From: Bdellovibrionota bacterium
Lineage (GTDB): Bacteria; Bdellovibrionota_C; UBA2361; JAFLCA01
Assembly: GCA_044347745.1 (NCBI GenBank)
Contig: JBIKUD010000008.1
Coordinates: 26,841-90,840 of the forward strand
DNA length: 64,000 nucleotides
Direction: 5' to 3'
The notes beneath the pieces are model-generated. The model saw nothing but the letters and a program-made list of their open reading frames with translations, searched no databases and was not told the DNA's origin. How positions within the stretch are numbered: position 1 is the first letter of the stretch; each line of letters starts with the position of its first letter. The position numbers and the translations under genes were made by a program. Positions 9,026 to 29,401 of this stretch are shown here, piece by piece.

Positions 9026-11335
9026 CTATTCAGCAACTAAAGTGTACGGATTTAGCCCAACCGCAACTCTGGCGCAGGCAGCCGCTTGTTCAGCTTTACT
9101 CTGTAGAGTTGGCGCGACAGTAAGAGCATTTCTCTGGTCATCGCAGGAGCCTCCTTGCGGGCATGGTTCACGAAATCGACTTTGGAGCACACACGGCGAG
9201 CAGGCATGTAAAGCTTTGTTACAATCATTTGCTGGATTTGCGTCTAGGTCAGAATCGCAGGCGGCGCCCCCTCGATCGTTGTAAAAATTTACATAATTAC
9301 TTACTGGACCGGGTTCGAGCATTGGGCAAATAAAGCCACCGGTATCAATAGCAAGCTGTGTAAATAGCCCTACAGGAGAGCCAAAGATCCACCCAGTATT
9401 TCCTGCGGTAAAATTGTTAAATGCTTGGTCCAGAGCAGCAGTGGGAGCTCCAGTATCATCGTAGCTTGCTGAACTTACGAACGCTTGTGTGCCTCCGCCC
9501 CCTTGGCCAGAGAAGCCAAGCGCGCGGGCTTGGTCGTAACTTAAATAGCAAGCTGGATTGTCGGTAGTAAATCCGGTGCCTGAAGTCCAGGTGCCGCAAG
9601 CGGGGTTGTTGCTTGAAATATTAAAATAATTGGGGCGAATGCCGCTGCCGTCTAGAATAGTGGTCAGCGAAATTTCTCTTTGTTGTAAAAGTGTTCTGAT
9701 GCTTGGAATGCCAGGTCCAATATTATTAAAAAGGAGCTGTGCCTCAGCGCGCCGATAATACGAAAAAGTTGGTGGGCTGCCCGCTGGTAAAATAGGCACA
9801 TAACCAGTTCCCGTAGAATTGGAATACAAACTGGAGACCCCATCGGTAGCCAGAATAATTGACTTACTTGAAAGTGGGGGGCAAAAGTTTGTGAGCGTAT
9901 TGGCTGCATCTAAGAGCGCCAAGACAATATTTGTATTTTGGCTGTTTGCCGAAGGAAACCAACCCTTATCAACAAAATTTGGGTGAATTTTAGGATGTGC
10001 AGGGTCCGGTACGTTTGCTCCAGCGCTAAACACTATCCGTCCAGCATTGTCCATGTTGGTAAGCTGGATAAGGTACCCTAAATCATTCGTAAGGCCGGTG
10101 CCGGGCTCTTTATCTCGAATGACATCGGAAAACATTACGACAACGCTGCTATCTGTGCCCGATTGGGTGGCCTGCATTCGTCTAAGACCAGCGTTAAAAG
10201 CTAACATATTGTTCGAAAACGGCTGGGGCCCTGTGTACGCTGGTGGTGCGTGGAATTTTTCAACCCACACAGGCACATTGGGCCCTCCTGGCGTCACAGG
10301 GGCTGATTCAAGTTCGTAGTCGTCTTGATAATGGCGAATATCAGGCGGGGTTCCCGTGCCATAAGCGGAGGTTCTAAATTGCGGATAGTTGCACCATGCT
10401 ATTCCCTCGGCGCTTAAATATGGATTGCTTAAATTAGGAGACTGGCAGTTGACTGGAAGGTTTGCCTGAGTAAGTGCATAAAAGCCAAAATTGTCTTTGT
10501 TCGGCCCACCTAAGCTTTCAGGTAAAGCCATTTGCGAGGGAGCGCAGCAGGCAGTCCCTACGCAGGTGCTCGGAATCTGGTTACAAAACTCAACCGGAAG
10601 CCCCCCGGGGTTAGTAGGATCACAGCAGCTTGTTGGGTTTGCTGAATCATACTCGCAGGAGCTGGTGCTTATGTTAATGCAGGGGTTTGGTGGGGCAGCC
10701 CGATACGGCTTATGAGTTTCTACTTGAACTGAGATAGAAAGATCCATTACATAGGCCGCGCAGCGCGGCACAATAGCGGCAATTGCACTGGCGTTAATAT
10801 TAAATCCATTTAGCCCAAAAAAGTTACCGAACGGAAAATCGATGGGATCATTTGGCTCGGTATTTACCGAGAGCTTAACTGCATTAATTGTGGTGCCTGG
10901 AGTGCTGCTTGGGTTTCCCTCAACAAAGCAGGGGTAAGCTCCGCCGCAAGGGTCAATTCCAACGGGTTGTGACTGATACCAAGTGCCATAAGCAGCTACG
11001 CCGCCGCTGCCAACTAAAGGACTATAGCCAATGTTTTGAATCGGATTTTGGGTGCCGGCTAACTTATTTGCCGCAAGTATTTCTCTTGCGCGATTAATGC
11101 CGTCAGCCACACGGGCATCATGCATACTCGAGGGGTTTGGGCTATTTACATAACCCTCTAGGGCTGCAAGGGCGGCCAAATTGGTAGCATCAAGTAATCT
11201 TGTTTTGCTTGAGCTTAAAATGCCAAGTCCAATTACTGCGCCGGTAAGAAGCACAATTGCGGTAATAAGCAGGGCGAGGAGTACCATAAAAACTCCCTGC
11301 TCTTTTTTATTTTTCAGAGGTTGCAAGTGCTTCAT
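9026..11335 (-). CDS. TadG-like Tad/Flp pilus-associated protein with a probable vWA-like region and Cys-rich segments
   Basis: N-terminal single TM of the TadE/TadG type (VFMVLLALLITAIVLLTGAVIGLG). It also has a MIDAS-like VVVMFSDV...ILATDG segment and many Cys clusters. It lies adjacent to two TadE-like genes. Confidence 0.5.
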   Translation of the reverse strand: MKHLQPLKNKKEQGVFMVLLALLITAIVLLTGAVIGLGILSSSKTRLLDATNLAALAALEGYVNSPNPSSMHDARVADGINRAREILAANKLAGTQNPIQNIGYSPLVGSGGVAAYGTWYQSQPVGIDPCGGAYPCFVEGNPSSTPGTTINAVKLSVNTEPNDPIDFPFGNFFGLNGFNINASAIAAIVPRCAAYVMDLSISVQVETHKPYRAAPPNPCINISTSSCEYDSANPTSCCDPTNPGGLPVEFCNQIPSTCVGTACCAPSQMALPESLGGPNKDNFGFYALTQANLPVNCQSPNLSNPYLSAEGIAWCNYPQFRTSAYGTGTPPDIRHYQDDYELESAPVTPGGPNVPVWVEKFHAPPAYTGPQPFSNNMLAFNAGLRRMQATQSGTDSSVVVMFSDVIRDKEPGTGLTNDLGYLIQLTNMDNAGRIVFSAGANVPDPAHPKIHPNFVDKGWFPSANSQNTNIVLALLDAANTLTNFCPPLSSKSIILATDGVSSLYSNSTGTGYVPILPAGSPPTFSYYRRAEAQLLFNNIGPGIPSIRTLLQQREISLTTILDGSGIRPNYFNISSNNPACGTWTSGTGFTTDNPACYLSYDQARALGFSGQGGGGTQAFVSSASYDDTGAPTAALDQAFNNFTAGNTGWIFGSPVGLFTQLAIDTGGFICPMLEPGPVSNYVNFYNDRGGAACDSDLDANPANDCNKALHACSPCVLQSRFREPCPQGGSCDDQRNALTVAPTLQSKAEQAAACARVAVGLNPYTLVAE

Positions 11336-11374
11336 AGCAAAACTCCATTAAAATTTCTTGGTACCCGCTGGGTA

Positions 11375-12946
11375 TCAAACTCCGGTGCACCCACAACCTA
11401 AATTACAGCAGCGGTTATTGGCATTGCATCCGCTAGTACAGTAGGCACCTTGCGGCCCGCTACATTGACTACAGGTTAAGGTAGCTGTCGGAGAGGGTGT
11501 GTGGGTTGGTGTGGGCGTTAAGGTGATGGTCGCAGTGGCAGTCATAGTCGGTGTTGGAGACGGAGTGGTTGTGGCTGTAGCTGTTGCCGTTGCTGTTGCG
11601 GTTTGAGTTGGACTGCTTGTAGCGGTTGCAGTAGCTGTTTGCGTCGGAGTTGAAGTTGTTGTGGCCGTTTGAGTTGGAGTTCTCGTTGTTGTCGGAGTCC
11701 TTGTTGGTGTGCGTGTCGGCGTAACTGACGGTGTTAGGGTGACAGTCGGGGTTAAAGTCACGGTTGGCGTTAACGTAATTGTTGGCGTCGGGGTTACAGT
11801 TCCTGTTGCCGTGCTTGTCGGTGTGCTCGTTGTGGTCGGAGTCTGAGTCGGTGTCGGCGTAATAGTTGGCGTCAGTGTGGACGTTGGCGTTGAAGTAACC
11901 GTTGGCGTAAGGGTGATAGTTGGGGTGAGAGTCACCGTAGGCGTCGGCGTTATTGTAGGAGTAAGAGTTGGCGTCGGCGTTATTGTTGGTGTGCTCGTTG
12001 GTGTTGTCGTTGGTGTACTGGTGCTCGTTGGAGTTTGAGTCGGCGTTGGCGTAATTGTGGGTGTATTCGTAATCGTCGGTGTCAGCGTTGGGGTGTTCGT
12101 TGTTGTTGCCGTGGCTGTTGGTGTTGTAGTGGGTGTTAGTGTTGGCGTTGGTGTAAGTGTAGGAGTTGGAGTTGGGCTTACTGTAGCCGTTGGTGCCACG
12201 CCGCCTAGACCAAATACTCTTGCTCTACGAAAAGCAACCTGAGCTGCAACAAGTCTAAAATTTGGCACTAAAGGAGTGACTGGACTAAAGTCTACTTCTA
12301 AATGAACCACTAATGGATGCAAACCGAGCACATTCGCCCAGCTTTCTGTAGGTCCAGGCCAAAATTGGTTTGTGGTCGAATTTCGCGAAGGGTGCTCTAA
12401 AATCGAGTTATCACTCATGCGGCGCACTCTTTCGCCGGGACGCATAAACGCAGCATCTCTTAGATTTGAATTAGTAATGCCGCTGCCCGGAGCAACATAC
12501 GTAAGGCCCGAGCAATATGGGTTAGAGCTGCAGGTATAATCTGGAGAAAAGTAATGATCGAAAGGGATTAGTCGAGCACCACTAGGCACATTTGAAGGTG
12601 ATACTACCAGAGAAGCAGTTTGAAGCGCCCGCCCAAGCACGCCTGAATTCGGTACCCCGTTTGTGCCAAACACATCTGCGTGAAATTGGGCACATTTTTG
12701 GGTATTCGCGATTGTCGCCGTGCAAAATGTTTGATCAGTGGGAATTTCTGTTTCGCGTTTAGCTGCAAAATCAACTGCATCATGGGCAGCCCAATTCAGC
12801 ACCACCCAAATGAGAAAATAGCGGGCTATGTCGATGGTGAAAAAAACGAAGAGTAGAAAAATGGGCAGCGTGATGGCCGCCTCGATAAACGAGACCCCAG
12901 ATTGACTGGGTACTCTAGAGCGAAAAGATGAACGCGGGCCCTGCAT
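11375..12946 (-). CDS. TadE-like pseudopilin carrying a ~270-aa Thr-Pro repeat tract and a C-terminal Cys-rich knot
   Basis: N-terminal TadE motif [26 protein letters not shown]. The long (TPTPTLTPT)n region is encoded at about 11470-12250. The last 31 aa contain 10 Cys ([32 protein letters not shown]). Confidence 0.6.
11470..12250 (-). repeat. Highly repetitive coding DNA (degenerate 6-9 nt units encoding Thr-Pro repeats)
   Basis: On the plus strand I see periodic gttggcgt / gtcggcgt / gttggagt units. An antisense ORF translates as a VGV repeat. Confidence 0.7.
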
Positions 12947-13113
12947 AATTCTGTCGACTCAATCCGTAAGTACTCATACTAGGCAAGGGCCAGAATCCAT
13001 TCAAGCTATAGCTTACTTTTTAAATGACCAGCCATGGCCATTTAAAAAGCGCTCCAAACTCCATTGGGGCCCCACTGCACCCCAACACCTTGCTTTGCCC
13101 CGAGCTCACCCTT

Positions 13114-13773
13114 TTATGGGCAGGTACTTGGCGTACAGCTACTATCTGTGCAGCATGCCCCGCCAACGCTAATCAGGGTTCCATTGCAATCGTATAAACA
13201 TCCCGGATTTCCAAAGCGATTCAAAGAGCCTACTCCATTACCTGAGGTTGCAAGTATTGGAGCAACAACCTGTGTTTGGAAGTCGCCTGTCACAAGCTGA
13301 ACAAGTGGAGGTACGTTCGCGTCCATGGTGACGGTAATAGATCTCGCCGGAGCTCCCGTAACGTTATAAGAAGCGTCCATATCTGGAGGACCGCTCAATT
13401 TATGGTAGCGATTCATATTTCCGAGTTGGGTATTTCGATAGTTCATGTCATTGACGCCAATTTGCCCTTGAGGCCAGCCGGCTCCCGCAATTGCCACTTC
13501 GTAAGCCATATTGTTTACCCAGCTTACTTGGGAATAGAGGCGACCAAGTTCCAGAATTCCAGAGAAGAAGATGAAGATAATAGGCAAGGTAAAAAGAAAT
13601 TCTACAATGACACCGCCCTGGGCGTCTTTGCGCCAAGCTTGAGAAGAACAGTGTGATGCTAAATTCCACGCCATATTTGTATGCAGGGCCCAGTGAGCCC
13701 CTAACCTCTGTACCTTATATCTGGGGTTCAGCAAGAATTGATCCAATTCAAATTGCTCAAAAATCGATATCAT
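13114..13773 (-). CDS. TadE-like pseudopilin with a Cys-rich C-terminus. The true start is probably internal, near 13674.
   Basis: TadE motif GGVIVEFLFTLPIIFIFFSGILELGRLY. The C-terminal end reads GGACCTDSSCTPSTCP. The first 33 codons of the ORF look like an upstream run-on. Confidence 0.5.
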   Translation of the reverse strand: MISIFEQFELDQFLLNPRYKVQRLGAHWALHTNMAWNLASHCSSQAWRKDAQGGVIVEFLFTLPIIFIFFSGILELGRLYSQVSWVNNMAYEVAIAGAGWPQGQIGVNDMNYRNTQLGNMNRYHKLSGPPDMDASYNVTGAPARSITVTMDANVPPLVQLVTGDFQTQVVAPILATSGNGVGSLNRFGNPGCLYDCNGTLISVGGACCTDSSCTPSTCP

Positions 13774-13893
13774 GTTGAACTAACTAAGTAAAATTTCTAT
13801 TAGTCGCGGCAGACAAAAGGCGTTATGCTCAGCTTCTCAGAGTGCTCTGGCGTAACGCGCTGAATTTATTGTGTTTATTGGACTACGAATTTC

Positions 13894-14664
13894 ATGCAGA
13901 GCAGCAAAATGGCGGGGCCTGAACTAGTAATTGTAATGCCAGCCTATAACGAGGAAGGTTGTATCGAGCCCGTGGTATCTGGGTGGCTTAAGCAACTAGG
14001 GGCTATGGGGCTTAAGGGGCATTGCCTTCTCGTAGTTAACGACGGTTCCCGTGACCAAACCGGCAAAATCTTGGATAGCTTGGCAGCAAAGCAGCCTCAG
14101 GGCTTAAAGGTTATTCATCAACCTAATGGTGGGCATGGTAGAGCCCTACGGCATGCTTATGAGCAAGCACTGGCTCTTGAACCGAGCTGGGTTTTCCATG
14201 TTGATAGCGACGATCAGTTTATACCAGAAGATTTAAACAAACTTTGGCAGCAAAGGCACACCTCAGATTTTATACTTGGGCTCCGAGCAGTGCGACACGA
14301 TGCCCCGCATCGACTCGTTATAACCCGCATTATGAGGCTATTAAATTTTTTGGCTTTTGGTGTGTTTTTGAAAGATGCAAATGTGCCGTTTCGTTTGATT
14401 CGAGGATCGTACCTCAAATTGTTACTTGAAATTGTGCCTGCGACCGTATTTGCTCCAAACATTTTCCTCTCTGTGCTTGCTGCTCGTGATGGGCAGAATC
14501 TTGGTTTTTTACCGGTGCAACATCGTGAGCGAGAAACGGGAAAAGTATCTATCGTGCGCTGGGGACTGATAAAAGCTTGTATGCGTTGTGTCCGAGAGCT
14601 TATGGTTTTTCGGGTTCAGCTTGGATCAAATCTGGCAAAAATTCGGCGAGATCGTAAACCGTAA
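13894..14664 (+). CDS. GT2-family glycosyltransferase, polyprenol-phosphate sugar synthase type (Dpm1/GtrB/ArnC-like)
   Basis: The motifs VIVMPAYNEE, VVNDGSRDQT, NGGHGRAL and DSDDQF are all GT-A/GT2 signatures. The protein is short (256 aa), like polyprenyl-phosphate glycosyltransferases. Confidence 0.75.
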   Translation: MQSSKMAGPELVIVMPAYNEEGCIEPVVSGWLKQLGAMGLKGHCLLVVNDGSRDQTGKILDSLAAKQPQGLKVIHQPNGGHGRALRHAYEQALALEPSWVFHVDSDDQFIPEDLNKLWQQRHTSDFILGLRAVRHDAPHRLVITRIMRLLNFLAFGVFLKDANVPFRLIRGSYLKLLLEIVPATVFAPNIFLSVLAARDGQNLGFLPVQHRERETGKVSIVRWGLIKACMRCVRELMVFRVQLGSNLAKIRRDRKP

Positions 14665-14690
14665 AGTGCCCAAGTTTTATTCACCAACTC

Positions 14691-16736
14691 GTGGGCCCTT
14701 TGGAGAATCTACCTGTGACAAAAATTGACCCCATCGCAGCCAATGAAATGTCTGTATCAAAAAGTTATTTTGCTGGGTTTTCTCGAGTTCAGCTTGTCTT
14801 ATTTTGGCTCTGCGTTGCGGTTGGATTAGCGCTGCGTTGGATAGGACTTGATGAAAGACCGTTTCATCATGATGAATCGTTGCATGGAATGTACGGGAAG
14901 TATTTTTTTGATTGGCCAGAGCACAATTACTACAAATACTCTCCAATGCTGCATGGGCCTTTCCTCTACAATATGTTGCGGGTTGTCTACAATACGCTCG
15001 GTGAAAGTGATTGGGCGGCTCGTGCGCCCATTGCGCTTGTAGGAAGTGCACTGCTGTTTGTTCCACTCTTGTTTCGTCGCTGGCTTAGCGTAGGCAGCGT
15101 GCTCGTGCTTACCGCCACTGTGTCTCTCTCTCCAACCCTAGTGTATTGGTCCCGATTTTTGCGTGAGGATACGCTTATTCTTGCGTTGATGGCCTTAATG
15201 CTATTTGCGGTCACAGAAATGCGCGCGCCTCTTAAAGCGTTCTGGTTCATTCTCGCTTTTACATTGCAGTTTTGTATTAAAGAAAATGCTTATGTGACTT
15301 TAGCTATTTTACTTGGCTACCTTGTTTTTGAGCATTTGTATGCATTATGGAAATTGGACGATAAAAATTCATTAGTCCGTTCGATGTTTCGATATGTGTC
15401 TCAGCACAAAGTTGCAACTTTCGTTGCGTGTGCGGTTAGTACCTTTATTTATTGTTATCTCTACAGCGCTGGTTTTCGCTACTCTCAGGGAATTCTCGAT
15501 GGTCTGTATCGTGAGAGCATTGTGTACTGGATGCATCACCACAACATCGAACGTATCAGCGGGCCGTTTTTGTTTCATTTCTACATGCTGTCTTGGTATG
15601 AGAGCTTGTTTGTTCTGGCCTTCTTGGCGCACCTCTACTTCTTTTATAGAGCTGCTTCAATGCCAGTACGCGCACTCGCTGCCGCCACTTTAATTTTTGC
15701 CTTAACCCTGGGTATTTGGGTATCGACCAACATGGGCGTTGGAGTCCAAGCTACAGGTTCTTTCTTGGACCCAACTAGTATTAACTTTCTTGTATGGAAG
15801 TTTTTTAAACTGAAAGACGGCTATGATTTAGTCGGACTTATCATATTTTTGGTTCATCCGTTTATTGTCACAGTGGTGCATCTTAACCGTGGTGAAAGGG
15901 CGCTCGCATTTTTTGGCTACTTCTTTACCGCCACACTTTTTACCTACAGCTATTTAGGCGAGAAGGTACCTTGGTTGTCTGTTTACCCATTTGTGTCAGG
16001 ACTGGCCTACTTTGCGTTGTTTTTTGAATCTGTGCTCGCCAAGTTTGACGTGGGCTATTGGTCTGAATGCAGCACTGCCGCATTGCTACGCAATTTTGGT
16101 ATTCTATGCTCGCTTCTTGGATTATGGTTCTTGGTAGAGTCTGGGGAGGTAGCCGAGCTGTGGTGGGTCTTTTCTGGCCTTGTTTTTGTGTTCGCCGCTA
16201 ACGCCGCTCAATCGGCAGGCATGCTCGGCTCGTATAATGCGGCGCGTTTTGGTTTTGCGGTGCTGGCTCTTTTTATGCTGAGAGCCTCAGTATTAACAAA
16301 CTTTGTATATGCCGGAGATGCACGAGAGTATATTTCTCAAGTGCATACTACCAAAGAATTTCACACCATCATGAAGGCTCTTCAAACTGAGATAAACAGC
16401 GAGCTTAGGGGCTATCGGCCTTCGGTTTTTGTAACGGGGGAAGCTACCTGGCCTTCAACTTGGTATATGCGTCATTATCCAAACGAATATAAGTTTACCG
16501 CAGCAACCGCTGATTACCCGTCATTTAATTATCTGGTGCTTGATTGGAAAGAAGGTGAGCGTCCTGCTGGTATTCCCGAGCACTTTAGGGTGCTGAAGAT
16601 CAACTTGCGTGGCTGGTGGGTTCCTGACTTTCGGGAAATGACCCTCAAGAGATTTTTAGCTTATGCGCTCAATCGCACTCCCTGGGGGCCAACAGGATAT
16701 TCCTACGTTAACTTGGTGGTAAACCCGGCAAAATAA
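14691..16736 (+). CDS. GT-C fold integral membrane glycosyltransferase-like protein (PMT/ArnT-like, GT39-type)
   Basis: Polytopic membrane protein of 681 aa. Its first loop carries HHDESLHGMYGKYF, which resembles the PMT/ArnT DE motif (FDEVHFGKF). Confidence 0.55.
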   Translation: MGPLENLPVTKIDPIAANEMSVSKSYFAGFSRVQLVLFWLCVAVGLALRWIGLDERPFHHDESLHGMYGKYFFDWPEHNYYKYSPMLHGPFLYNMLRVVYNTLGESDWAARAPIALVGSALLFVPLLFRRWLSVGSVLVLTATVSLSPTLVYWSRFLREDTLILALMALMLFAVTEMRAPLKAFWFILAFTLQFCIKENAYVTLAILLGYLVFEHLYALWKLDDKNSLVRSMFRYVSQHKVATFVACAVSTFIYCYLYSAGFRYSQGILDGLYRESIVYWMHHHNIERISGPFLFHFYMLSWYESLFVLAFLAHLYFFYRAASMPVRALAAATLIFALTLGIWVSTNMGVGVQATGSFLDPTSINFLVWKFFKLKDGYDLVGLIIFLVHPFIVTVVHLNRGERALAFFGYFFTATLFTYSYLGEKVPWLSVYPFVSGLAYFALFFESVLAKFDVGYWSECSTAALLRNFGILCSLLGLWFLVESGEVAELWWVFSGLVFVFAANAAQSAGMLGSYNAARFGFAVLALFMLRASVLTNFVYAGDAREYISQVHTTKEFHTIMKALQTEINSELRGYRPSVFVTGEATWPSTWYMRHYPNEYKFTAATADYPSFNYLVLDWKEGERPAGIPEHFRVLKINLRGWWVPDFREMTLKRFLAYALNRTPWGPTGYSYVNLVVNPAK

Positions 16737-16746
16737 GCGAGGGATT

Positions 16747-17463: not shown

Positions 17464-17481
17464 ATGAGCGACGGGTGACAA

Positions 17482-20966: not shown

Positions 20967-21241
20967 TTCAATTCAGTAGTTAAATGCCGGAAGAGACAAG
21001 TGGTCAATCTTCTTAATATGGCTGGTGGGCCACCTTACGTTACCTTGAGTGAGCCTCTCCCCTCAAATATCGGTACGTAGTTTTGAGAGCATAAGGCAGG
21101 CGTTTAGAACGACGTTGTAGTTTGTGGCTGGTTGCGGGCCAAGGTTATGAAAATATGTAAAAATGCCGAATCATTGAGAGATGCATAGATTGCGCCGCAA
21201 ACAAAAGCGCTGAAGCGGGGCGACGAGGAACTAGGTTTTTC

Positions 21242-22099: not shown

Positions 22100-25000
22100 A
22101 TTCGCACACCTCCACTTTGCATGCGTAATTTGAAGAGTCCGGGGTTCTCCGTAAATTTTCGTAAACCGACAGAGTTATAGGTTCCATTCGCGTAGAGCTT
22201 TTGTTCCTCCGTTCCAATAATAATATAGCGAACGGCAAGAAGTTTTAGATATGTATGTGCAATCTCAAGATTGTCGCTTGAGTAAATGGCATTAATTGCC
22301 TGTATTCGCTCGTGTACAGCTTGCCGCGAAGTCCCGCGTTGCTGCACATGATACTCCCAGCCAAGAACTGTAGGCAGGCCAGTGTGCATCGAAAAGCGAG
22401 TGAAGTTTTGATAGCTCTGACCATAGGCTTCCAGAATAACGGGTGTTCCCTGCACATTACGTCGCAGCCACTGGATGGCTTGGTATTCATGAAATGCATT
22501 TTCCTTTAGGTAGGCAGTGCCATTCAGAGTTGGACGTGGTCCATTAATTCGACGAAAAGAAGTCATGATATAGGCGTTATAAATTGAGCCCGCCATCACC
22601 ACTAGAAAACAAATTCCGCTTGCAAAGACCACGAAGCAGCTAAAATATCGGCCGAGCAGCTTGTACCTTGCGCCTCGATTCTGAAGGAGTCTTGAAAAGA
22701 GAGTTGCATTTGCGATTCCTAATAATAGCCAGATTGCATTGTAAAATTTAAAGACTGTATTCATGTGATCCATCAGAAAGCAGAGCTCGGCGAACGCCAT
22801 GATGCACCCAGCGAGCCAAAGAGATAGAGCGCCGAAACGCTGACCGCGGCTACTTTTGCTGTTAAGAGCCAGCGCAGCCCCGAGAGCACAGAGGAAACAT
22901 GAAACAGCAATAACGTCCCATGAAAGTGTTTGTGGTTGATGTGGCGAGCCAGCAGATAAGAGAAGTGGCGGGCTCATTAATATCAGTACGTAAAGAAAAT
23001 TGCGAAGGCGCTTCCATCGGGAAACGTCTGAACGAGAACTCAAAAGAAGCTGCAAGAAAACACCACAAGGAATAACCAGCCAATGTCCGAGATGACGCAA
23101 AATCTGATTAAGATTATTAAGTTCGAATGGGTGGTTGTATCCAAAGTGAGGCGTAAGGTCGTTTGCAGAATTTAATTTAAATATAACCAGAAATGGCAGC
23201 GCACCAATGGCGAGTAATGAGCCGTCACGTAAAAGATCTGCGAAAGCGGAGGTAATGCGAGCTATCGCGCGCTTCGGATATCTACCGCGTGCGTGCATAC
23301 AGGACGTATAGACCAGAATTATGCCAGTAAGTAGGCCATAGGAGATCGCATCCCAGGTGTTGGTAATAAAGATGAGGCCCAAAAGTATTCCGCAGAGAAT
23401 TCGGTGTAAAATGAGCGTAGGACTGAGGTCAGCGGGTTCTGCTCGGAAAAAGCGTGCCAGAAATAATAAACTGGTCAGAATGACCGGTACAACGATTACA
23501 TGCGCATGCAGGTCTGCAAATAAAAACGCCCAGAATGGATATTCAGTAATGCTCGGTTCGGTAAAGAGGCGAGAGCTTGCCCAGAATAAATCAAAGCTTT
23601 TTTTCTCGGCCTGCAAGGCAAGCAGTAAAACTTCAATGTTACTGCCCACCAACACAAGAATTGTAAAACTAAGCGCTATAAGCGGTTTTTTGGTTAGGTA
23701 GGCAAGCAAGGAATACAGCGCCGAAATGCTTAACGCCGCAATGGTTGCCATACTCAAATTGTAGCCAATGGCACTGTCGACTCCACTCATTTTATGAAGG
23801 AGTGCCATCATGTATGAGCCAAAGTAATAATAGCGCATCGAGGAGCCCGCGGCCCACGGATCTTGAGGAGGCAGAGTTTCAAGGCGGATAAAGTAATTTA
23901 GAAACCCAAAGTCCATGGGTTTTTCGCCCCAGAAAATTTCAGGCTGGAATGATCTTAGAAAAATAAAACCTGCAAATGAGAGCCAGAATAGGATGTCGAG
24001 CCTTAAGTACGACTTCAGCTTGGGAACAGTGATGAAATGAGACTTTCTATGTGCGAAATAACCGAGGGTTAAGCCAAGCAAAGTTAATAAAGTAAATAAC
24101 AGCCAGGCATTTGCTCCTGTTGAGCGCCAGAGATTGAAGCTGGTTCCAATCCATACAGTTCCAGATAACAATGCGAGGCCCAGCACTTTGTCGCATCCCG
24201 TGTCGGAATCTTGTTTCTGGGTAAATAAAATCCGAGTGAAGGTATTACCGAGAATCCCCAACGCGACAAGGACCAGCACCCACAATGATATGGCAAGCGG
24301 TGTCGACTGACGTGACTGTGCCGTATGGGCATGAGCTGGGCCGTCACGTTTAAGCATATCGCTTCGGGTGGGAAGTGGAGCAAATGCGTACGGCTCAGAA
24401 AGACGTCGGGAAATTTGCTCTGTTCCGAGTCTTTCCGAATTTTTAAACACCAGCACTTTGGGATGGTCGTATACAGTGAGACTTTCGTCTGCCTTATCGT
24501 TATTCCATACGTAGCCAGCAAATGTAGGCCTTGTTTTTTGGCTATACACTAGTTCGTAGCCAAGAGCGCCACGAAAGAGCAATTGGAACATCTGTGTGCT
24601 GAGGGGGTATTCTTCAGGAATGCGAGGGATAGCTCCATATGACCGGGCAGTAGGCAAGATAAGGTAGTCGGAACTGGCTAACTTTGTGGCGTACTGAGTT
24701 ACTTTATCGGAATTATCGGGATGATATAACTGAAGCTCATGGTCTGCGCCTTCAAAAAGGTATTGGCGAGCATCGAGTCCTGGAAGGCTCAGTGGGAGCC
24801 TGTCATCCCAGTCAACTCCCAGTAGTTTTGAACCGGGGGCAATGTTTTGATAAATCCAACGACTCGCGGTTTCATAGGCATGTGGCTCACTGTAAATTTG
24901 ATAAAATCCGAACCACCGTACAAGTGAAATCGATACGACAAAACAGGGCACCAGTTTACCAATATTTTGGGTGATGCTGTTCTTTAGAAATCCCGTGGTG

Positions 25001-26082
25001 AATATCGCTGCCCAGATTGCAAACATGGGGTACAGAGGCAAAAGATATCGTGGAAACTTAACGGGAAATCCTCCATAGATATAAAAAGTTACTAAAGACC
25101 AAGCGCTTACAATCAGCATTGAGGCAGAAAAATGAGACCTGAGCGAGTAAAGGAGACCGATTCCACTTGCGAGTGCTATAAATGGGCCTAGAGTATAAAA
25201 ATATATCTGGTGCAAAGGATACAACCAGGGTGTCGTGTGCGCGTATTGAATGATGTACGGAGGTCGCCAGTCACCACGCACCATAGAAATTTGCTCCATG
25301 GTGTGTTTGATAAAGAGATCTTTATCAATAAGTGCAAAGGGCTCAGAGAGGAGAAATGAGCACAATCCTACAAGTGGAATGCTGCTGGCATATATCCACC
25401 AGTGTGCGCTTTTAAGCATTCGTAGCTGGCAGCCAAAAATAAGAATGGCTAAACCCAAAGGTAAAGCAAGATTAAGTGCGCTCACTTTAGTTGCAAGTGC
25501 CAAGCCCCAAAGCCAGCCACTGAGGACAAATGCCCATAATTTTCCGGAGCGAATCTGAAGGATGGCCCAAAGGGTCCAGAGGCTTGCTGTGGTAAGAAAA
25601 ATATCCACCGCAAAAAAACGAGAAAGCTGAAAATAGAAAGTATTTGTTGCTAGTAATGCGGTGGCTATGACTGCAACCGAGCGAGAGTTGCAAATGCTCC
25701 ATGCAAGTTTCCAAGTTGCAATAAGGCCCAGCATGCCAACAAAAGCTGAAAGTCCACGACCTATTAAAAAAAGGTTGTCGTAGCTAAAGGCCGCGGGCCA
25801 AAGCAGTGCGAGCAATTTCGCCAGGCCCCAGGTTAGGTAAAATGGCAAGCTGCCATACGCAAAAGACAACGGGTTCATTCCGTTTTTTTCGAGGTCTAAG
25901 GTAACCATGACCATGTGGCGTTCGTCAGGATGGAAGCTTACCCCGTGATTGATGGTCGTCAGTGCGGCAAAGAAAAAAGCGAAGCAGAGCGCGGTGAGGG
26001 GCCAGGCGTCTTTCAGTGTCTGAATCTGCCCTTTCAAAGTCAGTTTTGAGTCTCCAGCTAAATCAGATTGAGGTGTATGCAT
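22081..26082 (-). CDS. Giant (1333 aa) polytopic membrane protein: an N-terminal PMT/ArnT-like GT-C domain fused to a DUF2298/YYY-type domain
   Basis: The N-terminal loop motif FHPDERH is of the DE-motif type. There are more than 20 hydrophobic segments and an MRYYYFGSY motif in the C-terminal half. It is a single uninterrupted ORF. Confidence 0.55.
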   Translation of the reverse strand: MHTPQSDLAGDSKLTLKGQIQTLKDAWPLTALCFAFFFAALTTINHGVSFHPDERHMVMVTLDLEKNGMNPLSFAYGSLPFYLTWGLAKLLALLWPAAFSYDNLFLIGRGLSAFVGMLGLIATWKLAWSICNSRSVAVIATALLATNTFYFQLSRFFAVDIFLTTASLWTLWAILQIRSGKLWAFVLSGWLWGLALATKVSALNLALPLGLAILIFGCQLRMLKSAHWWIYASSIPLVGLCSFLLSEPFALIDKDLFIKHTMEQISMVRGDWRPPYIIQYAHTTPWLYPLHQIYFYTLGPFIALASGIGLLYSLRSHFSASMLIVSAWSLVTFYIYGGFPVKFPRYLLPLYPMFAIWAAIFTTGFLKNSITQNIGKLVPCFVVSISLVRWFGFYQIYSEPHAYETASRWIYQNIAPGSKLLGVDWDDRLPLSLPGLDARQYLFEGADHELQLYHPDNSDKVTQYATKLASSDYLILPTARSYGAIPRIPEEYPLSTQMFQLLFRGALGYELVYSQKTRPTFAGYVWNNDKADESLTVYDHPKVLVFKNSERLGTEQISRRLSEPYAFAPLPTRSDMLKRDGPAHAHTAQSRQSTPLAISLWVLVLVALGILGNTFTRILFTQKQDSDTGCDKVLGLALLSGTVWIGTSFNLWRSTGANAWLLFTLLTLLGLTLGYFAHRKSHFITVPKLKSYLRLDILFWLSFAGFIFLRSFQPEIFWGEKPMDFGFLNYFIRLETLPPQDPWAAGSSMRYYYFGSYMMALLHKMSGVDSAIGYNLSMATIAALSISALYSLLAYLTKKPLIALSFTILVLVGSNIEVLLLALQAEKKSFDLFWASSRLFTEPSITEYPFWAFLFADLHAHVIVVPVILTSLLFLARFFRAEPADLSPTLILHRILCGILLGLIFITNTWDAISYGLLTGIILVYTSCMHARGRYPKRAIARITSAFADLLRDGSLLAIGALPFLVIFKLNSANDLTPHFGYNHPFELNNLNQILRHLGHWLVIPCGVFLQLLLSSRSDVSRWKRLRNFLYVLILMSPPLLLSAGSPHQPQTLSWDVIAVSCFLCALGAALALNSKSSRGQRFGALSLWLAGCIMAFAELCFLMDHMNTVFKFYNAIWLLLGIANATLFSRLLQNRGARYKLLGRYFSCFVVFASGICFLVVMAGSIYNAYIMTSFRRINGPRPTLNGTAYLKENAFHEYQAIQWLRRNVQGTPVILEAYGQSYQNFTRFSMHTGLPTVLGWEYHVQQRGTSRQAVHERIQAINAIYSSDNLEIAHTYLKLLAVRYIIIGTEEQKLYANGTYNSVGLRKFTENPGLFKLRMQSGGVRIYEFGT

Positions 26083-26421
26083 GTGGTCGTAATCCTAGGC
26101 CAAGGCGCTTTAAGTATTCGATGCAATTTAACCTTAAATGCCTCTTTTTGAGCAGGTGTAATATAATAAGCGCGCTTGAATATGCCCATTTTTGAGGGGG
26201 TTCACATTTCATTCGGTGCGCAAGATAACTCAGAAGCTGGTACCGCACCCGGCCCAGTCACCCGATTTTCCAGCCCCCCGATCCTGCCCGGACCTCCCTT
26301 ACTACTATTGTGTGGACTATCAGTAGGACTTGTCAGCCTGGGCAATGTAAATAACCGGGAGAAAGCTGCCAATTATGTACAAGGCGTTTCAGCTTGGGTC
26401 AAAAATTGCTATCAATAAGCA

Positions 26422-28050
26422 ATGACAAAACCCGCAGATTCACTTGGGTCTCGAATTGGTGCTTTTATTGGCGCTCACGATATTTTGGTTTTGGTAGCAT
26501 TTTATAGCATGCTGCTCGTTCAGGCCCCATTATTTGCGAGCGATGCGGGTGTTGGGTGGCACCTTAAGACCGGTGAATGGATTGCCAAGCACTTTTCGGT
26601 TCCGTATACAGATCCATTCCTATTTTCCTCGCAGCCTCGTGCTTGGATTTGTGATCAGTGGCTTTCAGATCTAATTCTTTGGGTTCTTTACCAAGCGGGG
26701 AATTGGCCGCTGCTGTATGCTTTTTTGGCCGTCATTTTTGGCGCGGTGTTTTTTGTATTGCTGTATAGAACACTGAGAGATTTTTCGGGATTCGCATTAC
26801 CTGTAAGTCTTGCCCTGATTTTAGCTTTTAAGCTCGCACAGATCCATTTTGTCTTGAGGCCAGTCATTTTTGGAATAGCCCTTTTTGCACTTCTGTACTG
26901 CCTAACCCTCAACATACTGAAGTATTTTTCCGTAGCAACCACTCAGCACATAATGCGTGAGTTCCACTTCATTGCCCTAGGGGCGGTTTTATTTGCTTTG
27001 TGGGCAAACATCCATCCAACTTTTGTATTGGGCTGGATATTTCTCGTGAGCGTCTTTTTGGGGTTAGCGCTCGATCGGTATCTATTAGAGCAGCATGAAG
27101 TTGCCTGGGTATCTCCAAAATTTTGGGCTTTTGCCGCTCTATTGCTGTTTGTTGCAGTAGCTGCCACTTTGCTTAATCCAAATTTTTTGGCGCTTCATCA
27201 GAGCATTTATGCCCTCGGCACCAGCGCATATTTTATGCGTTATCATCAAGAATGGTTGGGGGTCGATTTTATATCATTTGAAGGCAAGTTGGTTTTTTTT
27301 GTTTCTGCTGCTCTTTGGGTGGCCTTGGTTATTTCGCCCACCTTACGTCGGCACCTTGGATTCCGGTTTCTTGTGCCTTTTTTAGTTTTTTTGTGGTTTG
27401 GAATCACTGCGCAACGTGGGCTTCCCTTTTTTGGGATAGTGGCTTCGCTACCTTTTGCACTCGCGCTGGCACACCTGGGAAAAGCCGAGGCATTGCAGGG
27501 CAGGAGTTTGAAATCTCGATTGGTTCGGCATTTTGCTGTTATTGAGAGCTTTGAAAGGCGAGCGCCAAGGGGCGCCGCGATATTTTTTGCGCTTTCCTGT
27601 TTAGTTTTTGGGGATGTCTTCTTAAATGGGCAGACACTTTTCTACCGTGGCCCCTATGGACCTGCCCAAGAACGTTATCCCTATATTAGCCTCGGAGTGC
27701 TTAAAGACCTGGCGACTCCTGAAAATAAGCTTGCTGTGCTGGCTCCCGCCGACTGGGGCGGCTTTATGACCCTCGAAGGGGAGGGCAGTCTTGAGCCTAT
27801 TATTGATGACCGTAATGTGCTTCTTGGCGAGCAGTTTTATAAAGATTTCCATTTTTTTATGAACCCTACCCGTGATTGGCTTAATTATGCAGTCTCGTTA
27901 GGCAGTACCCACCTGCTTTGGCCAGCACAATCAGATCTGGCGCGAAAGATTAAGCAAAATGGAGATGCCTATCTTGTGCATGAGGATGAAATTGCTATTG
28001 TTTTTGAACTTCGGTCTACTCTTTCATTAAATGGCGAGGATGGAGACTAA
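26422..28050 (+). CDS. Polytopic membrane protein, possibly GT-C-like. It is translationally coupled to the VKOR-DsbA gene.
   Basis: 542 aa with many TM segments. It overlaps the downstream gene by 20 nt. Confidence 0.4.
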   Translation: MTKPADSLGSRIGAFIGAHDILVLVAFYSMLLVQAPLFASDAGVGWHLKTGEWIAKHFSVPYTDPFLFSSQPRAWICDQWLSDLILWVLYQAGNWPLLYAFLAVIFGAVFFVLLYRTLRDFSGFALPVSLALILAFKLAQIHFVLRPVIFGIALFALLYCLTLNILKYFSVATTQHIMREFHFIALGAVLFALWANIHPTFVLGWIFLVSVFLGLALDRYLLEQHEVAWVSPKFWAFAALLLFVAVAATLLNPNFLALHQSIYALGTSAYFMRYHQEWLGVDFISFEGKLVFFVSAALWVALVISPTLRRHLGFRFLVPFLVFLWFGITAQRGLPFFGIVASLPFALALAHLGKAEALQGRSLKSRLVRHFAVIESFERRAPRGAAIFFALSCLVFGDVFLNGQTLFYRGPYGPAQERYPYISLGVLKDLATPENKLAVLAPADWGGFMTLEGEGSLEPIIDDRNVLLGEQFYKDFHFFMNPTRDWLNYAVSLGSTHLLWPAQSDLARKIKQNGDAYLVHEDEIAIVFELRSTLSLNGEDGD

Positions 28051-29401
28051 TATAAAACATAAAGCTGTAGCGCTTGTCCCAGTACTCAGTGTTATTGGGG
28101 CGGTGCTTAGTCTCATTTCTCTGTATCAACATACCGCACTTGTTCATGGTGTGGCGACAGGGCCTTCATTCTGCAATTTAAGCGCTGAGGTGAATTGCGA
28201 TGCCGTGAATGCGAGTGCCTGGTCAACCGTATTGGGTCAGCCGCTTGCAGCCTATGGCGTTGCCTTTTATTTCTTAATCTTTTTTGGTTGGGTAGCGACC
28301 TTGCGAAAGCCAGCACTTTCGCAGACTCATTTTGTTGCTTTACTCAGTTTTTTTAGTGGTATTGCCTTTTTAGCCTCGATAGCGCTTTTCGCAATTTCCA
28401 AATTTGTGATCGGAACCCTGTGTCTACTCTGCATGGGGATGTATGCGGTCAATGCCGCTTTGTTTATGCTTGCGCTCCTTATTCCAGCCCAGGGTTCTGG
28501 GCTTGTGCATAAATTTTTGCTTGGAATTAAACTTTGCATTCAGTTTCCAAAGTTTTTGCTAAGCTCTAGCGCTCAGCAGTTAAGTGATGGTGATAAAAAC
28601 AGTGCAGATAAAAACTCCGGCGATAAAAATACCAGCGATAAAAATACCGTGCGATTGCAGGTGTTTGGCATTGCATCAATACTCTGCGCTGTTTTTTTCT
28701 TACCGAACTTCATGTACGCCGTCTTCATGCGCGACAAGCAGGTCGAGCGCAGTTTATCGCAGGTAAGTGAGCAAGTGTGGCAGAGTTGGCAAAATGCCCC
28801 TGTCAGTAATTTGGGGTTAGATTTTGACTCTGCCATCTCTCGCGATTATGCCTATGGGGCAGACGGGGCAGACGGGGCAGACGGGGCAGCATTTCAGTTA
28901 GTTGAGTTTGTTGATTTTGAATGCCCAGCTTGTCGCATGGCGTATCGGGAATTTAAAAAGTTAGCCCAGAAATTTGATGGCCAATTACAAATTGTGCTCA
29001 AGAATTATCCGCTTGATAATTCATGTAATCCAAGTATGCCAAGGCCGCTACATGCTTCAGCTTGCTTTCTTGCAAGTGTATCCCGCTGTGCTGGAGAGCA
29101 GGGGAAATTTTGGGAAGTTACAGATTATTTGTTCGAGCTGCCAATTGTTGAAGCTGAAGCTTCATTTGAGGAGGTCCGATCCGAGGCGTTTAAGGCTGTA
29201 GAGCTTTTCGAATTGGATGAGCAGGCGCTGCGAGAGTGTTTGGGCTCACCGCGAGTACTTGCAAAGCTTCATTCTGATATTGAGCTTGGTAATCAGCTTG
29301 GCTTACGGGGTACACCTTCCTTATGGTTAAACGGGAAAAAGCTTGAGGTTTCTCACCCTGAGGTAGTCGAGTCGCTGATAAAGAGAGCGATGCGCCAATG
29401 A
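28031..29401 (+). CDS. VKOR-like membrane domain fused to a periplasmic DsbA/thioredoxin-like domain (a disulfide-bond formation module)
   Basis: Membrane CxxC in LCLLCMGMYAVN plus loop cysteines (CNLSAEVNCDA), as in VKOR. The C-terminal FECPACRMAY is a thioredoxin CxxC. The linker contains DKNS and GADGADGAD repeats. Confidence 0.65.
   Translation: MARMETNIKHKAVALVPVLSVIGAVLSLISLYQHTALVHGVATGPSFCNLSAEVNCDAVNASAWSTVLGQPLAAYGVAFYFLIFFGWVATLRKPALSQTHFVALLSFFSGIAFLASIALFAISKFVIGTLCLLCMGMYAVNAALFMLALLIPAQGSGLVHKFLLGIKLCIQFPKFLLSSSAQQLSDGDKNSADKNSGDKNTSDKNTVRLQVFGIASILCAVFFLPNFMYAVFMRDKQVERSLSQVSEQVWQSWQNAPVSNLGLDFDSAISRDYAYGADGADGADGAAFQLVEFVDFECPACRMAYREFKKLAQKFDGQLQIVLKNYPLDNSCNPSMPRPLHASACFLASVSRCAGEQGKFWEVTDYLFELPIVEAEASFEEVRSEAFKAVELFELDEQALRECLGSPRVLAKLHSDIELGNQLGLRGTPSLWLNGKKLEVSHPEVVESLIKRAMRQ

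Follow-up and report, generated by a model that had tools for sequence, protein, structure and literature searches.

In a 64,000-nt stretch of DNA (here, the window) from a Bdellovibrionota bacterium (assembly GCA_044347745.1, contig JBIKUD010000008.1, positions 26,841 to 90,840 of the forward strand), we found three genes for pilin-like proteins back to back with genes for a glycosyltransferase and several GT-C-type membrane proteins. The pilin-like genes, which we call the triad, occupy positions 9026-13773 of the reverse strand and encode two TadE-like proteins, one small and one with a Thr/Pro tract, and a TadG-like protein. Across a divergent junction lie genes for an ArnC/GtrB-type GT2 and for three membrane proteins: one of the TIGR03663 (Agl23) family, one with DUF2298, and one that fuses PMT_2 to DUF2298 (Table 1). 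We tentatively read the locus as a minor-pilin operon of the Kil/Tad "Tip" type paired with a periplasmic glycosylation cluster that uses polyprenyl-phosphate sugars, with the Thr/Pro linker as the most likely prime acceptor in this clade (probability, roughly 0.45). From gene neighborhoods, we infer that this stalk is a likely but unproven substrate of the neighboring cluster. All loci compared come from uncultured MAGs. What the analysis shows is the identity of the genes, their GT-C folds, and the recurring adjacency; donor, acceptor, sequence of reactions, and placement at the pilus tip are inferred. Open reading frame calls and Pfam/NCBIfam profiles recovered every gene named in the original prediction where it had been placed. 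However, the region had been described as an island, and its GC content is flat (0.45-0.51), so it is not a compositional island.

Table 1. Features of the triad, the glycosylation cluster, and the genes between them (positions are those of the window).
Feature	Positions	Strand	Length	Evidence or remark
TadG-like large minor pilin	9026-11335	-	769 aa	Pfam Tad PF13400, 22.6 bits (cut-off 22.3)
TadE-like minor pilin with Thr/Pro linker	11375-12946	-	523 aa	TadE PF07811, E 1.4e-9
Small TadE-like minor pilin	13114-13773	-		TadE PF07811, E 4.4e-8
Divergent intergenic region	13774-13893		120 bp	Between Tad-like operon and GT2 gene
GT2 glycosyltransferase	13894-14664	+	256 aa	PF00535, E 2e-19
TIGR03663/Agl23-family GT-C-fold membrane protein	14691-16736	+	681 aa	TIGR03663, 229.6 bits (cut-off 126)
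BPL_N gene	16747-17463			Inside span; not conserved among relatives
DUF2298 (YYY-domain) GT-C-fold membrane protein	17482-19536	-	684 aa	DUF2298, E 2e-49
Hypothetical gene	19803-20966			Inside span; not conserved among relatives
Hypothetical gene	21242-22099			Inside span; not conserved among relatives
PMT_2-DUF2298/TIGR03662 two-module GT-C fusion	22081-26082	-	1,333 aa	Pfam/NCBIfam
Unclassified 12-TM membrane protein	26422-28050	+	542 aa	Belongs to cluster; absent from original prediction
VKOR-DsbA fusion	28031-29401	+	456 aa	VKOR, E 4e-21; Thioredoxin_4, E 1.5e-15; DSBA, E 8e-10

The TadG-like protein has a pilin-type hydrophobic helix at its N terminus. Tad is matched by four of the seven members of its family alignment, and its own Tad_C score (20.3 bits) lies just under the Pfam cut-off. 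A DxSxS...TDG (vWA/MIDAS-like) motif is conserved, with D198, D498, and G499 invariant in the alignment; a comparison with PDB sequences gave no match. The 523-aa TadE-like protein consists of a pilin-like N-domain of ~245 aa that carries the class-III signal motif G/VSFIE, a linker of TPTx type (residues ~252-491; 49% Thr, 19% Pro), and a C-terminal module of 31 aa with 8 Cys (8 in the last 32 aa). By composition the linker spans about 240 aa, not the ~270 aa of Thr-Pro repeats first described. This domain architecture is kept in relatives: among 57 long (at least 330 aa) representative homologs, 39 have a Thr/Pro linker and 51 a Cys-rich tail. Linker and tail together are a trait of the family. 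In two homologs (L092 and L094), the linker is rich in Gly, Thr, and Ala instead of Thr and Pro, and a role as a plain spacer is therefore possible. The small TadE-like gene probably starts at an internal Met and would then encode ~185 aa as in its relatives, where orthologs measure 181 to 187 aa. Cys-rich tails had been attributed to all three proteins. They are present in both TadE-like proteins (6 Cys within the last 28 aa of the small one), but the 24 Cys of the TadG-like protein are spread along its length, with just 2 in the last 40 residues.

The closest described counterparts of the triad are similar in architecture. In Myxococcus xanthus, the minor pilins KilL, KilM, and KilN assemble into "Tip" complexes of the Kil pilus, which is Tad-like; the genes of such triads lie at a distance from those of the pilus machinery, their products have many predicted disulfides, and Tip-like complexes have been reported in Bdellovibrio as well (Herrou et al. 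2025, PMC12075869). Like them, the triad is a three-gene operon of TadE/TadF/TadG homologs, one small, one C-terminally extended, and one large, with many cysteines. It too lies apart from pilus machinery: no Tad machinery genes were found in the 64-kb window, Pfam profile searches being among the evidence. Several paralogous triads per genome are a further shared feature, seen here as two tandem triads in each of three contigs (L002, L003, and L101). In contrast, the long Thr/Pro linker with its terminal Cys-knot and the neighboring GT-C cluster have not been described for Kil Tips, and the Kil study makes no mention of glycosylation (PMC12075869).

On the other side of the junction, the GT2 was assigned in the original prediction to the enzymes that load sugars onto polyprenol phosphate, and its best solved relatives bear this out: ArnC (9bhc, E 5.6e-7 over residues 11-223) and GtrB (5ekp, E 2e-4). 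Weak NCBIfam matches to ArnC, AglJ, PpgS, and a halobacterial Dol-P-hexose transferase model (E 5e-5) agree with a polyprenyl-phosphate-sugar synthase type, an assignment that is thus supported at the sequence level. The protein has no C-terminal TM helices.

The three membrane proteins predicted to be of GT-C type proved to be so. For the TIGR03663 protein (AF2 pLDDT 85), the best 25 Foldseek matches in the PDB all have the GT-C fold. ArnT (E 1e-5), ALG12, ALG9, STT3, Pmt1/2/4, EmbB, and PimE were among the matches, as was PIGU, a GPI-transamidase subunit of the same fold. The PMT/ArnT-like loop-1 motifs could be located as well: HHDES in the TIGR03663 protein, invariant across 20 homologs, and FHPDERH at residues 50-56 of the fusion, within its N-terminal PMT_2 module (E 1.1e-8). 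The C-terminal module of the fusion matches DUF2298 (E 3.5e-76) and TIGR03662 (428 bits; cut-off, 300). The fusion is kept in four other contigs (P0002, L003, L012, and L101), and the modules are separate adjoining genes in L046; that they are fused here and adjacent or fused in many relatives argues for joint action.

Two further genes follow the fusion in the window. The 12-TM protein matches nothing in Pfam, NCBIfam, or the PDB, and only 47 homologs were found, with loop-1 residues D41, P42, W46, H47, L48, and G51 invariant or nearly so. We regard it as a candidate accessory or GT-C-like component. The start of the VKOR-DsbA gene overlaps the 12-TM gene by 20 nt. Bacterial VKOR homologs fused to thioredoxin- or DsbA-like domains replace DsbB/DsbA, and the protein encoded here is an ordinary member of this group, with loop cysteines and a CXXC (CLLC) in the VKOR domain and CPAC in the DsbA-like domain; only the overlap and its place bordering the GT-C cluster are distinctive. 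It adjoins the GT-C cluster in four other loci (L012, L004, L021, and L046). The gene does stand at the end of the region, as originally noted, but a dedicated role is not borne out: in triad-free relatives it travels with a housekeeping block (RpiA and a GT2 homologous to window positions 31500-32585). It is probably the general periplasmic disulfide oxidase of the cell, a substitute for DsbB/DsbA.

How closely the two halves of the locus belong together can be judged from their distribution. The triad is divergent from GT2-TIGR03663 in seven contigs including the window, all of one clade with TIGR03663 identities of at least 50% (P0002, 70%; L002, 63%; L003, 54%; L102, 54%; L101, 53%; L012, 50%). 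The divergent layout of the window is repeated in five of them. L012 differs: its small-TadE-like open reading frame is longer, matches weakly, and runs directly up to the GT2 gene, leaving no spacer. To this extent the expected co-localization was found. However, of the species-level TIGR03663 loci, 44 are flanked by 5 kb or more on both sides; a GT2 was present in 18 of these, DUF2298 in 16, and the triad in 1, which implies that the cluster has other or broader targets. The triad-free loci (43/44) span several phyla and Archaea, and no GT-C gene lies within 10 kb of one distant triad (L088); the locus is therefore not the self-contained system first proposed.

These counts bear on a reading in which the adjacency is incidental. 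The cluster would then serve an envelope glycan, lipid, S-layer, or general glycoproteome, synteny would be inherited within one Bdellovibrionota subclade, and the Thr/Pro tract would be an unglycosylated spacer. We consider this a serious competitor, though one with less than even odds. Besides the single clade and the triad-free clusters, among them sister loci at 47 to 51% identity (L103, L004, L009, and P0021), it draws on fold relatives that act on lipids or glycans (ArnT, AftA, AftD, and ALG9/12) and on the variable composition of the linker. Yet the triad/GT2/TIGR03663 junction persists while outer flanks and inserted genes vary among the seven contigs, and in L102 it has outlasted the loss of DUF2298. 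Furthermore, a distant triad lineage (N-domain 35 to 37% identical) lies directly downstream of non-orthologous PMT_2 GT-Cs, joined in L096 by a 252-aa GT2 and a UDP-GlcNAc 2-epimerase. The 12-TM family is independently linked to both halves: it recurs in the region in L012 and L101, L004 and L103 carry it within their GT-C clusters, and in L097 (E 5e-49), L092, and L093 it stands beside the triad of another distant lineage. Also at odds with an incidental arrangement, secreted proteins with Thr/Pro linkers are encoded close to TIGR03663 in other phyla (L033, L072, L080/L082, L083, and L086).

Those same proteins suggest that the cluster could be an O-glycosylation system of general scope, acting on Thr/Pro-rich linkers in a wide range of exported proteins, with the tip pilin as one substrate among many, nearby by chance or for co-expression. 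The model would be the Ppm1/PMT O-mannosylation of Actinobacteria and fungi (GT39), where a GT2 polyprenyl-phosphate-sugar synthase supplies a GT-C enzyme with a loop-1 Asp-Glu that modifies Ser/Thr in Pro-rich exported segments. The window follows the same logic, with a PMT_2 domain and Pmt1/2/4 among fold matches, and the cluster is widely distributed. TPT-linker proteins from unrelated families are encoded next to TIGR03663 in other lineages, including an 840-aa beta-propeller (L004/L033), vWA-like proteins (L080/L082), and others in L083 and L086, but enrichment over a background frequency is unproven. Moreover, the 64-kb window encodes only one Thr/Pro-linker protein, and its PMT_2 protein has no MIR domain, GT39 PMT signature, or PF02366 match in Pfam; it is fused to DUF2298, in a Gram-negative host. 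We find this explanation rather less likely than not. Least probable is that DUF2298 proteins act like oligosaccharyltransferases, transferring preassembled glycans en bloc from polyprenyl diphosphate instead of stepwise from polyprenyl-phosphate monosaccharides: the DUF2298 protein shares with STT3/AglB/PglB the membrane-spanning GT-C module and, at its C terminus, an AglB-like globular domain, but sequence similarity is undetectable, the WWDYG motif was not identified, ArnT, ALG12, and PMTs score equally or higher in fold comparison, the three Tad-like proteins show no excess of N-x-S/T sequons (6 versus ~9 expected, 1 versus ~6.6, and 2 versus ~2), and Pfam/NCBIfam revealed no initiating phosphoglycosyltransferase or Wzx-type flippase in the cluster.

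Pairing of a pilin with a GT-C enzyme has a precedent in arrangement. TfpW of group IV Pseudomonas aeruginosa, a GT-C whose gene adjoins pilA, O-glycosylates Ser/Thr of the pilin in the periplasm; its donor is a polyprenyl-phosphate-linked sugar that other genes supply (D-Araf via the DprE1/2 pathway; bioRxiv 10.1101/2020.04.19.049825). In that system one GT-C, which includes a TPR domain, targets the major type IVa pilin, whereas the window offers three or four different membrane enzymes, Tad minor pilins, and a candidate Thr/Pro repeat acceptor. A GT2 paired with a TIGR03663-family protein is also known, as Agl22/Agl23 of Haloarcula hispanica, although that system is archaeal, dolichol-based, and without a pilin link. 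Agl23, after which the TIGR03663 model is named, is the one characterized member; in purified form it translocated a lipid-linked oligosaccharide. Its description as a flippase rather than a transferase counts against our preferred explanation.

Under the reading that we favor, with the Thr/Pro linker as prime acceptor, the triad would be an orphan Tip operon whose three proteins, by analogy with KilL/M/N, form a heterotrimer capping a Tad pilus with machinery encoded elsewhere. The GT2 would load a monosaccharide on polyprenyl phosphate at the cytoplasmic face, and the Agl23-family protein would flip or use the resulting donor. Sugars would be transferred to exported acceptors, and perhaps extended there, by the PMT_2-DUF2298 fusion and the DUF2298 enzyme, with the linker of the neighboring minor pilin as the most likely prime target, and VKOR-DsbA would oxidize the many cysteines of the triad. 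If the linker is glycosylated, it would form a stiff, protease-resistant stalk bearing a disulfide-knotted head.

Eleven open reading frames of at least 200 aa lie within positions 9026-29401, and three adjacent ones form what we call the triad: a small TadE-like protein, a TadE-like protein with a Thr/Pro tract, and a large TadG-like protein. Both TadE-like proteins have the N-terminal domain that defines membership in PF07811, a hydrophobic helix with a G/xxxxE motif, and the class-III signal motifs SG/VSFIEA and G/GVIVEF are present in the two sequences. In the 523-aa protein, an N-terminal domain of about 245 aa carrying G/VSFIE is followed by a TPTx-patterned tract of about 240 aa (49% Thr, 19% Pro), and then by a 31-residue tail with 8 cysteines. 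The TadG-like protein, with its conserved DxSxS...TDG motif, scored 22.6 bits for Tad (PF13400; cut-off, 22.3) and 20.3 bits for Tad_C (PF09977; cut-off, 22.1). Other members of its family gave stronger matches (best E 1.5e-8), with four of seven matching Tad and four of seven matching Tad_C; a sequence search of the family profile against the PDB returned nothing meaningful. Cysteine makes up 2.3 to 3.2% of the triad proteins, among the highest values for the 38 genes of the window. The original prediction described this gene content as we found it, apart from the length of the tract and a Cys-rich tail assigned to the TadG-like protein, whose cysteines are instead spread out.

To define the family of the Thr/Pro-tract pilin, we scanned 1.84 billion representative proteins in full with its N-terminal domain. 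Relatives fell into 143 clusters, 84 of them at E <= 1e-10; with about 140 clusters when grouped at 50% identity, this is a small, rare family. Among the best 92 of the 143 clusters by score, which we used for composition analysis, 39 of the 57 members of at least 330 aa had a linker rich in T and P that spanned 40 aa or more, and at least four cysteines fell within the last 45 residues in 51 of those 57. Because of these counts, we take the hallmark of this rare, undescribed family, as read from sequence, to be a pilin domain, a flexible or glycosylatable stalk, and a Cys knot. Most members also end in a short Gly-rich terminus directly after the Cys-rich module (...GGG, ...GTGG, or ...KPIG), which might act as a signal for sorting or processing; the window pilin ends in ...CTGV (11375-11470). 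In members from one lineage (loci L092 and L094) the linker is Gly/Thr/Ala-rich in place of Thr/Pro, with GTAGTAG repeats and interspersed Cys-rich EGF-like modules.

A gap of 120 bp separates the triad from divergently oriented GT2 and TIGR03663 genes. A promoter and terminator scan of this divergent region found sites no more numerous than in shuffled sequence. The GT2 is of the ArnC/GtrB/DPM1 type, and among solved structures its best relatives are the polyprenyl-phosphate transferases ArnC and GtrB. By alignment it has a GT-A domain and juxtamembrane interface helices similar to theirs: it aligned to ArnC at E 5.6e-7 over residues 11 to 223, which takes in the region after the DxD motif, and to GtrB at E 2e-4. 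Unlike ArnC and GtrB, it has no C-terminal transmembrane (TM) helices on sequence inspection and ends in an amphipathic segment. Some DPM1-type enzymes likewise lack TM helices.

Features of the window and of related loci (L-numbers, loci of relatives; P0021, a relative's contig; positions are those of the window unless a locus is named)
Feature	Position	Strand	Remarks
Triad of pilin-like proteins	13773 to 9026	-	TadE, TadE, and Tad/Tad_C domain matches
Small TadE-domain protein	13114-13773	-	PF07811 E 4.4e-8; 6-Cys tail
523-aa TadE-domain protein	11375-12946	-	PF07811 E 1.4e-9
769-aa TadG-like protein	9026-11335	-	Borderline Tad/Tad_C; 24 Cys along length
GT2, 256 aa	13894-14664	+	Best solved relatives ArnC and GtrB
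TIGR03663 protein, 681 aa	14691-16736	+	229.6 bits (curated NCBIfam cut-off 126.25)
BPL_N (class I amidotransferase-like)	16747-17463	+	ParD antitoxin in its place in 70% relative
DUF2298 protein, 684 aa	17482-19536	-	PF10060 169 bits (cut-off 27.8)
Hypothetical, 387 aa, one TM	19803-20966	-	Otherwise only in 70% relative
Hypothetical, 285 aa, signal-like N-terminus	21242-22099	+	Otherwise only in 70% relative
Fusion, 1333 aa	22081-26082	-	PMT_2 module (FHPDERH) and DUF2298/TIGR03662 module
12-TM protein, 542 aa	26422-28050	+	Unclassified
VKOR-DsbA fusion	28031-29401	+	VKOR 75.9, Thioredoxin_4 58.2, DSBA 39.2 bits; CLLC, CPAC
Second GT2, 361 aa	31500-32585	+	
Second triad, in tandem with first	L002 1-4158; L003 1-2904; L101 1-2771		Divergent from first
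Extra TadG-like gene	L102 766-3030		
Pilins with Gly/Thr/Ala-rich linker	L092 3561-5363; L094 1741-3126		
12-TM relatives	L012 14854-16416; L097 6702-8186; L004 15109-16536; L103 2839-4650; L101 20383-21980		
TPTx-linker secreted proteins	L080 15345-17807; L082 9259-11361; L083 1009-1737; L086 8213-9037; L004 12483-15005		
Flavoprotein	L003 8591-9952; L101 8628-9989; L102 8631-9992; L012 4908-6389; P0021 contig		

Three membrane proteins of the cluster were expected to be GT-C enzymes; their profile matches were to TIGR03663, TIGR03662/DUF2298, and PMT_2. The fusion reached 428.2 bits on TIGR03662 (cut-off, 300.25), and the 684-aa DUF2298 protein scored 219.6 bits, below that cut-off. As judged from sequence, the conserved acidic residues typical of the first extracytoplasmic loop of the GT-C superfamily appear in all three. 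In the TIGR03663 protein, HHDESLH follows the first TM helix and does not vary across 20 homologues, with D61 and E62 directly after TM1; FHPDERH holds the equivalent place after TM1 of the fusion; and E108 and D112 are invariant in the DUF2298 protein. The fusion does not qualify as a GT39 PMT, since it matched PMT_2 (PF13231) alone and neither PF02366 nor MIR at E <= 0.01; some of its orthologues do match PF02366. The PMT_2 and DUF2298 modules are fused or often adjacent, and we therefore argue that they may act on the same substrate.

Because searches of the TIGR03663 and DUF2298 profiles and the 1333-aa fusion against PDB sequences found nothing meaningful, we modelled two of the membrane proteins and compared them by fold. 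The relationship between TIGR03663 and DUF2298 was likewise settled by fold, because profile-profile comparisons among the TIGR03663, DUF2298, and 12-TM families were not significant. The TIGR03663 model (pLDDT 85) gave Foldseek matches at probability 1.0, and its top 25 matches all had the GT-C fold, the polytopic fold shared with ArnT, PMT, STT3, and ALG enzymes: ArnT, ALG12, ALG9, STT3, Pmt1/2/4, EmbB, PimE, ALG6, and PIGU, the last a GPI-transamidase subunit. The model of DUF2298 predicts a GT-C core joined to a C-terminal domain like that of AglB. In the literature that we searched, DUF2298 was mentioned only in passing, in two papers, and bacterial TIGR03663 not at all; as far as those papers show, the GT-C assignment for DUF2298, made on the model, is new.

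To characterize the neighbourhood of the cluster, we used a TIGR03663 alignment to search genomes, one for each species, which yielded 78 loci, mostly from Bdellovibrionota. Among the 44 in which the gene is flanked by 5 kb or more on each side, a related GT2 lay within 10 kb in 18, DUF2298 in 16, a PMT_2 module in 8, VKOR-DsbA in 4, and a Tad-like triad in 1. The cluster is not a dedicated pilin system, because it is widely distributed without Tad genes, and the self-contained island of the original prediction does not survive these counts. What does recur is the junction itself. Together with look-ups of closer relatives, the species scan gave seven contigs in which the triad diverges from GT2-TIGR03663: the window, the P0002 contig (70% TIGR03663 identity), L002 (63%), L003 and L102 (54% each), L101 (53%), and L012 (50%). 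At L012 the series is complete as far as the 12-TM protein and VKOR-DsbA; L102 has lost DUF2298. Sister loci lacking the triad occur at 47 to 51% identity (L103, L004, L009, and the P0021 contig).

Genes around the junction vary, with inserted toxin-antitoxin genes, an amino-oxidase flavoprotein, and a PAS protein. The flavoprotein (FAD amino-oxidase/NAD_binding_8, about 450 aa) lies between GT2 and TIGR03663 in most relatives, but the window lacks the gene; its product might alter the lipid carrier or the lipid-linked sugar. We rejected the BPL_N gene and the two hypothetical genes (19803-22099) as parts of the system, as they are missing or replaced in relatives. The window flanks are housekeeping genes (topoisomerase IV, transketolase, PEP carboxykinase, RpiA, and fumarase), and no tRNA was found in the window. 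A horizontally transferred compositional island was rejected on flat GC. By its homologues, the organism falls among uncultured Oligoflexia/Bdellovibrionota.

In the reverse direction, a metagenome scan with the pilin N-terminal domain gave 14 loci, in which the three-gene operon and the linker/Cys-tail design are conserved. At L096, the triad comes immediately after two PMT_2 genes, on their downstream side (products of 827 and 890 aa; FCDEA loop-1 motif), together with a 252-aa GT2 and a UDP-GlcNAc 2-epimerase. The related locus L095, counted with it as one lineage, has a PMT_2 protein, a homologue of the 890-aa GT-C, and a fragment resembling the N-module of the window fusion. These GT-C genes matched neither the TIGR03663 nor the DUF2298 profile, and the association at these two loci involves mostly different GT-C genes from those of the window. 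A third lineage (L097/L092/L093), with a Gly/Thr/Ala-rich linker, has a 12-TM homologue (E 5e-49) 1.8 kb upstream of the pilin; a peptidase C39-TPR gene is immediately upstream of the pilin gene in L097, which shares a contig with L092. At L088 (20 kb), the triad has no GT-C, and the genes around it encode methyltransferases, a GT2-DUF2334 fusion, AsnB, and ETF. Assuming about 10 GT-C genes in 3 Mb, one would fall within 10 kb of a locus by chance in roughly 7% of cases.

The triad can be compared with the Tip proteins KilL/M/N of the Kil (Tad-like) pilus of Myxococcus xanthus, which are TadE/F/G homologues encoded by clusters of three genes at a distance from the pilus machinery, come in several sets of paralogues, have many predicted disulfides, and have Tip-like counterparts in Bdellovibrio (Herrou et al. 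2025, PMC12075869). By analogy, the triad fits these complexes in gene layout, paralogous sets, and high cysteine content. Specifically, it is a three-gene pilin-like operon; no Tad machinery (CpaF/TadA, TadB/C, RcpA, or prepilin peptidase) was found within the 64-kb window; and three relatives carry a second triad, while a fourth has an extra TadG-like gene. The tandem second triads recall the interchangeable Tip sets of Myxococcus.

Disulfide formation had been assigned to a dedicated component, the VKOR-DsbA fusion, which is a standard fusion of a VKOR CXXC domain and a thioredoxin-fold DsbA CXXC domain. Its start overlaps the 12-TM gene by 20 nt, which suggests from the layout that the two genes may be co-transcribed, and the same gene order is seen at L012. 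In triad-free relatives, VKOR-DsbA stays beside a homologue of the window's second GT2 (L004 and L021), with RpiA adjoining in L004, and the dedicated role was downgraded to a probably generic one. VKOR-DsbA most likely oxidises all periplasmic cysteines, those of the Cys-rich tip proteins included. The second GT2 accompanies VKOR-DsbA in L004/L033 and L021, with RpiA as well in L004/L033; these genes form a conserved block that has the GT-C cluster as its neighbour. The 12-TM protein had no Pfam or PDB match, and hhalign comparisons with the TIGR03663 and DUF2298 profiles were not significant. Its family is rare and unannotated, with only 47 homologues found, and has invariant or nearly invariant residues (D41, P42, W46, H47, L48, G51, R146-P147, W194, N196, H198, and E277-W278). 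It occurs in GT-C clusters without Tad genes and beside a distant triad without TIGR03663/DUF2298.

A GT2 that feeds a GT-C enzyme is known from ArnC/ArnT and Ppm1/PMT, and the window cluster follows the same logic, as does the archaeal pair Agl22/Agl23, in which Agl23 is reported to be a flippase of hexose-P-dolichol for extracellular glycans, both N- and O-linked. In the reading that fits the evidence best, the GT2/GT-C cluster would make a polyprenyl-phosphate sugar and use this donor on the periplasmic side, and in the window clade a favoured acceptor would be the Thr/Pro stalk on the neighbouring tip pilin. There is precedent in TfpW, a GT-C encoded beside a pilin gene that can O-glycosylate pilin Ser/Thr (bioRxiv 10.1101/2020.04.19.049825). 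N-glycosylation of the Tad-like proteins is unsupported, as N-x-S/T sequons are not enriched; in the Thr/Pro-tract pilin they are depleted (1 observed versus about 6.6 expected from composition), because Asn in the tract is almost always followed by Thr-Pro (NTP).

Thr/Pro linkers are also found near TIGR03663 outside the pilins. Proteins of unrelated families with such linkers adjoin TIGR03663 genes at L033, L072, L080/L082, L083, and L086, and secreted TPTx-linker proteins lie within a few kb of the gene in Acidobacteria, Gaiellaceae, a deltaproteobacterial MAG, and another Bdellovibrionota genome; one is a vWA-like protein that has three of these linkers, and another is a beta-propeller protein of 840 aa. 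Such cases hint that the cluster may favour Thr/Pro linkers in general.

The original prediction is confirmed in what it observed and partly supported in its interpretation. Glycosylation of Tad tip pilins is plausible, and from gene neighbourhood in one clade and in one or two distant lineages we put its probability at about 45%. A more specific version seems doubtful: that the (probably predatory) Bdellovibrionota clade has Tad/Kil tips with a Thr/Pro stalk and a disulfide-knotted head, the stalk being heavily O-glycosylated by a dedicated GT-C relay of an Agl23-family protein, the PMT_2-DUF2298 fusion, and the STT3/AglB-like DUF2298 protein. If true, it would be the first Tad minor-pilin glycosylation system and would give bacterial DUF2298/TIGR03663 proteins their first function. 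Pilin glycosylation by GT-C enzymes and Tad Tip complexes are already known, and the literature that we searched held nothing specific on glycosylation of TadE/TadG-type proteins. The predicted DUF2298 fold, a GT-C core with an AglB-like domain, is relevant to how protein glycosylation enzymes evolved. If the link between cluster and triad is real, it would supply a concrete acceptor for two large, essentially unstudied membrane-protein families (DUF2298 and bacterial TIGR03663), and the glycosylation of pilins, so far one of major type IVa pilins (TfpW, PilO, and PglL), would take in Tad/Kil tip minor pilins, recently proposed as determinants of prey and target specificity.
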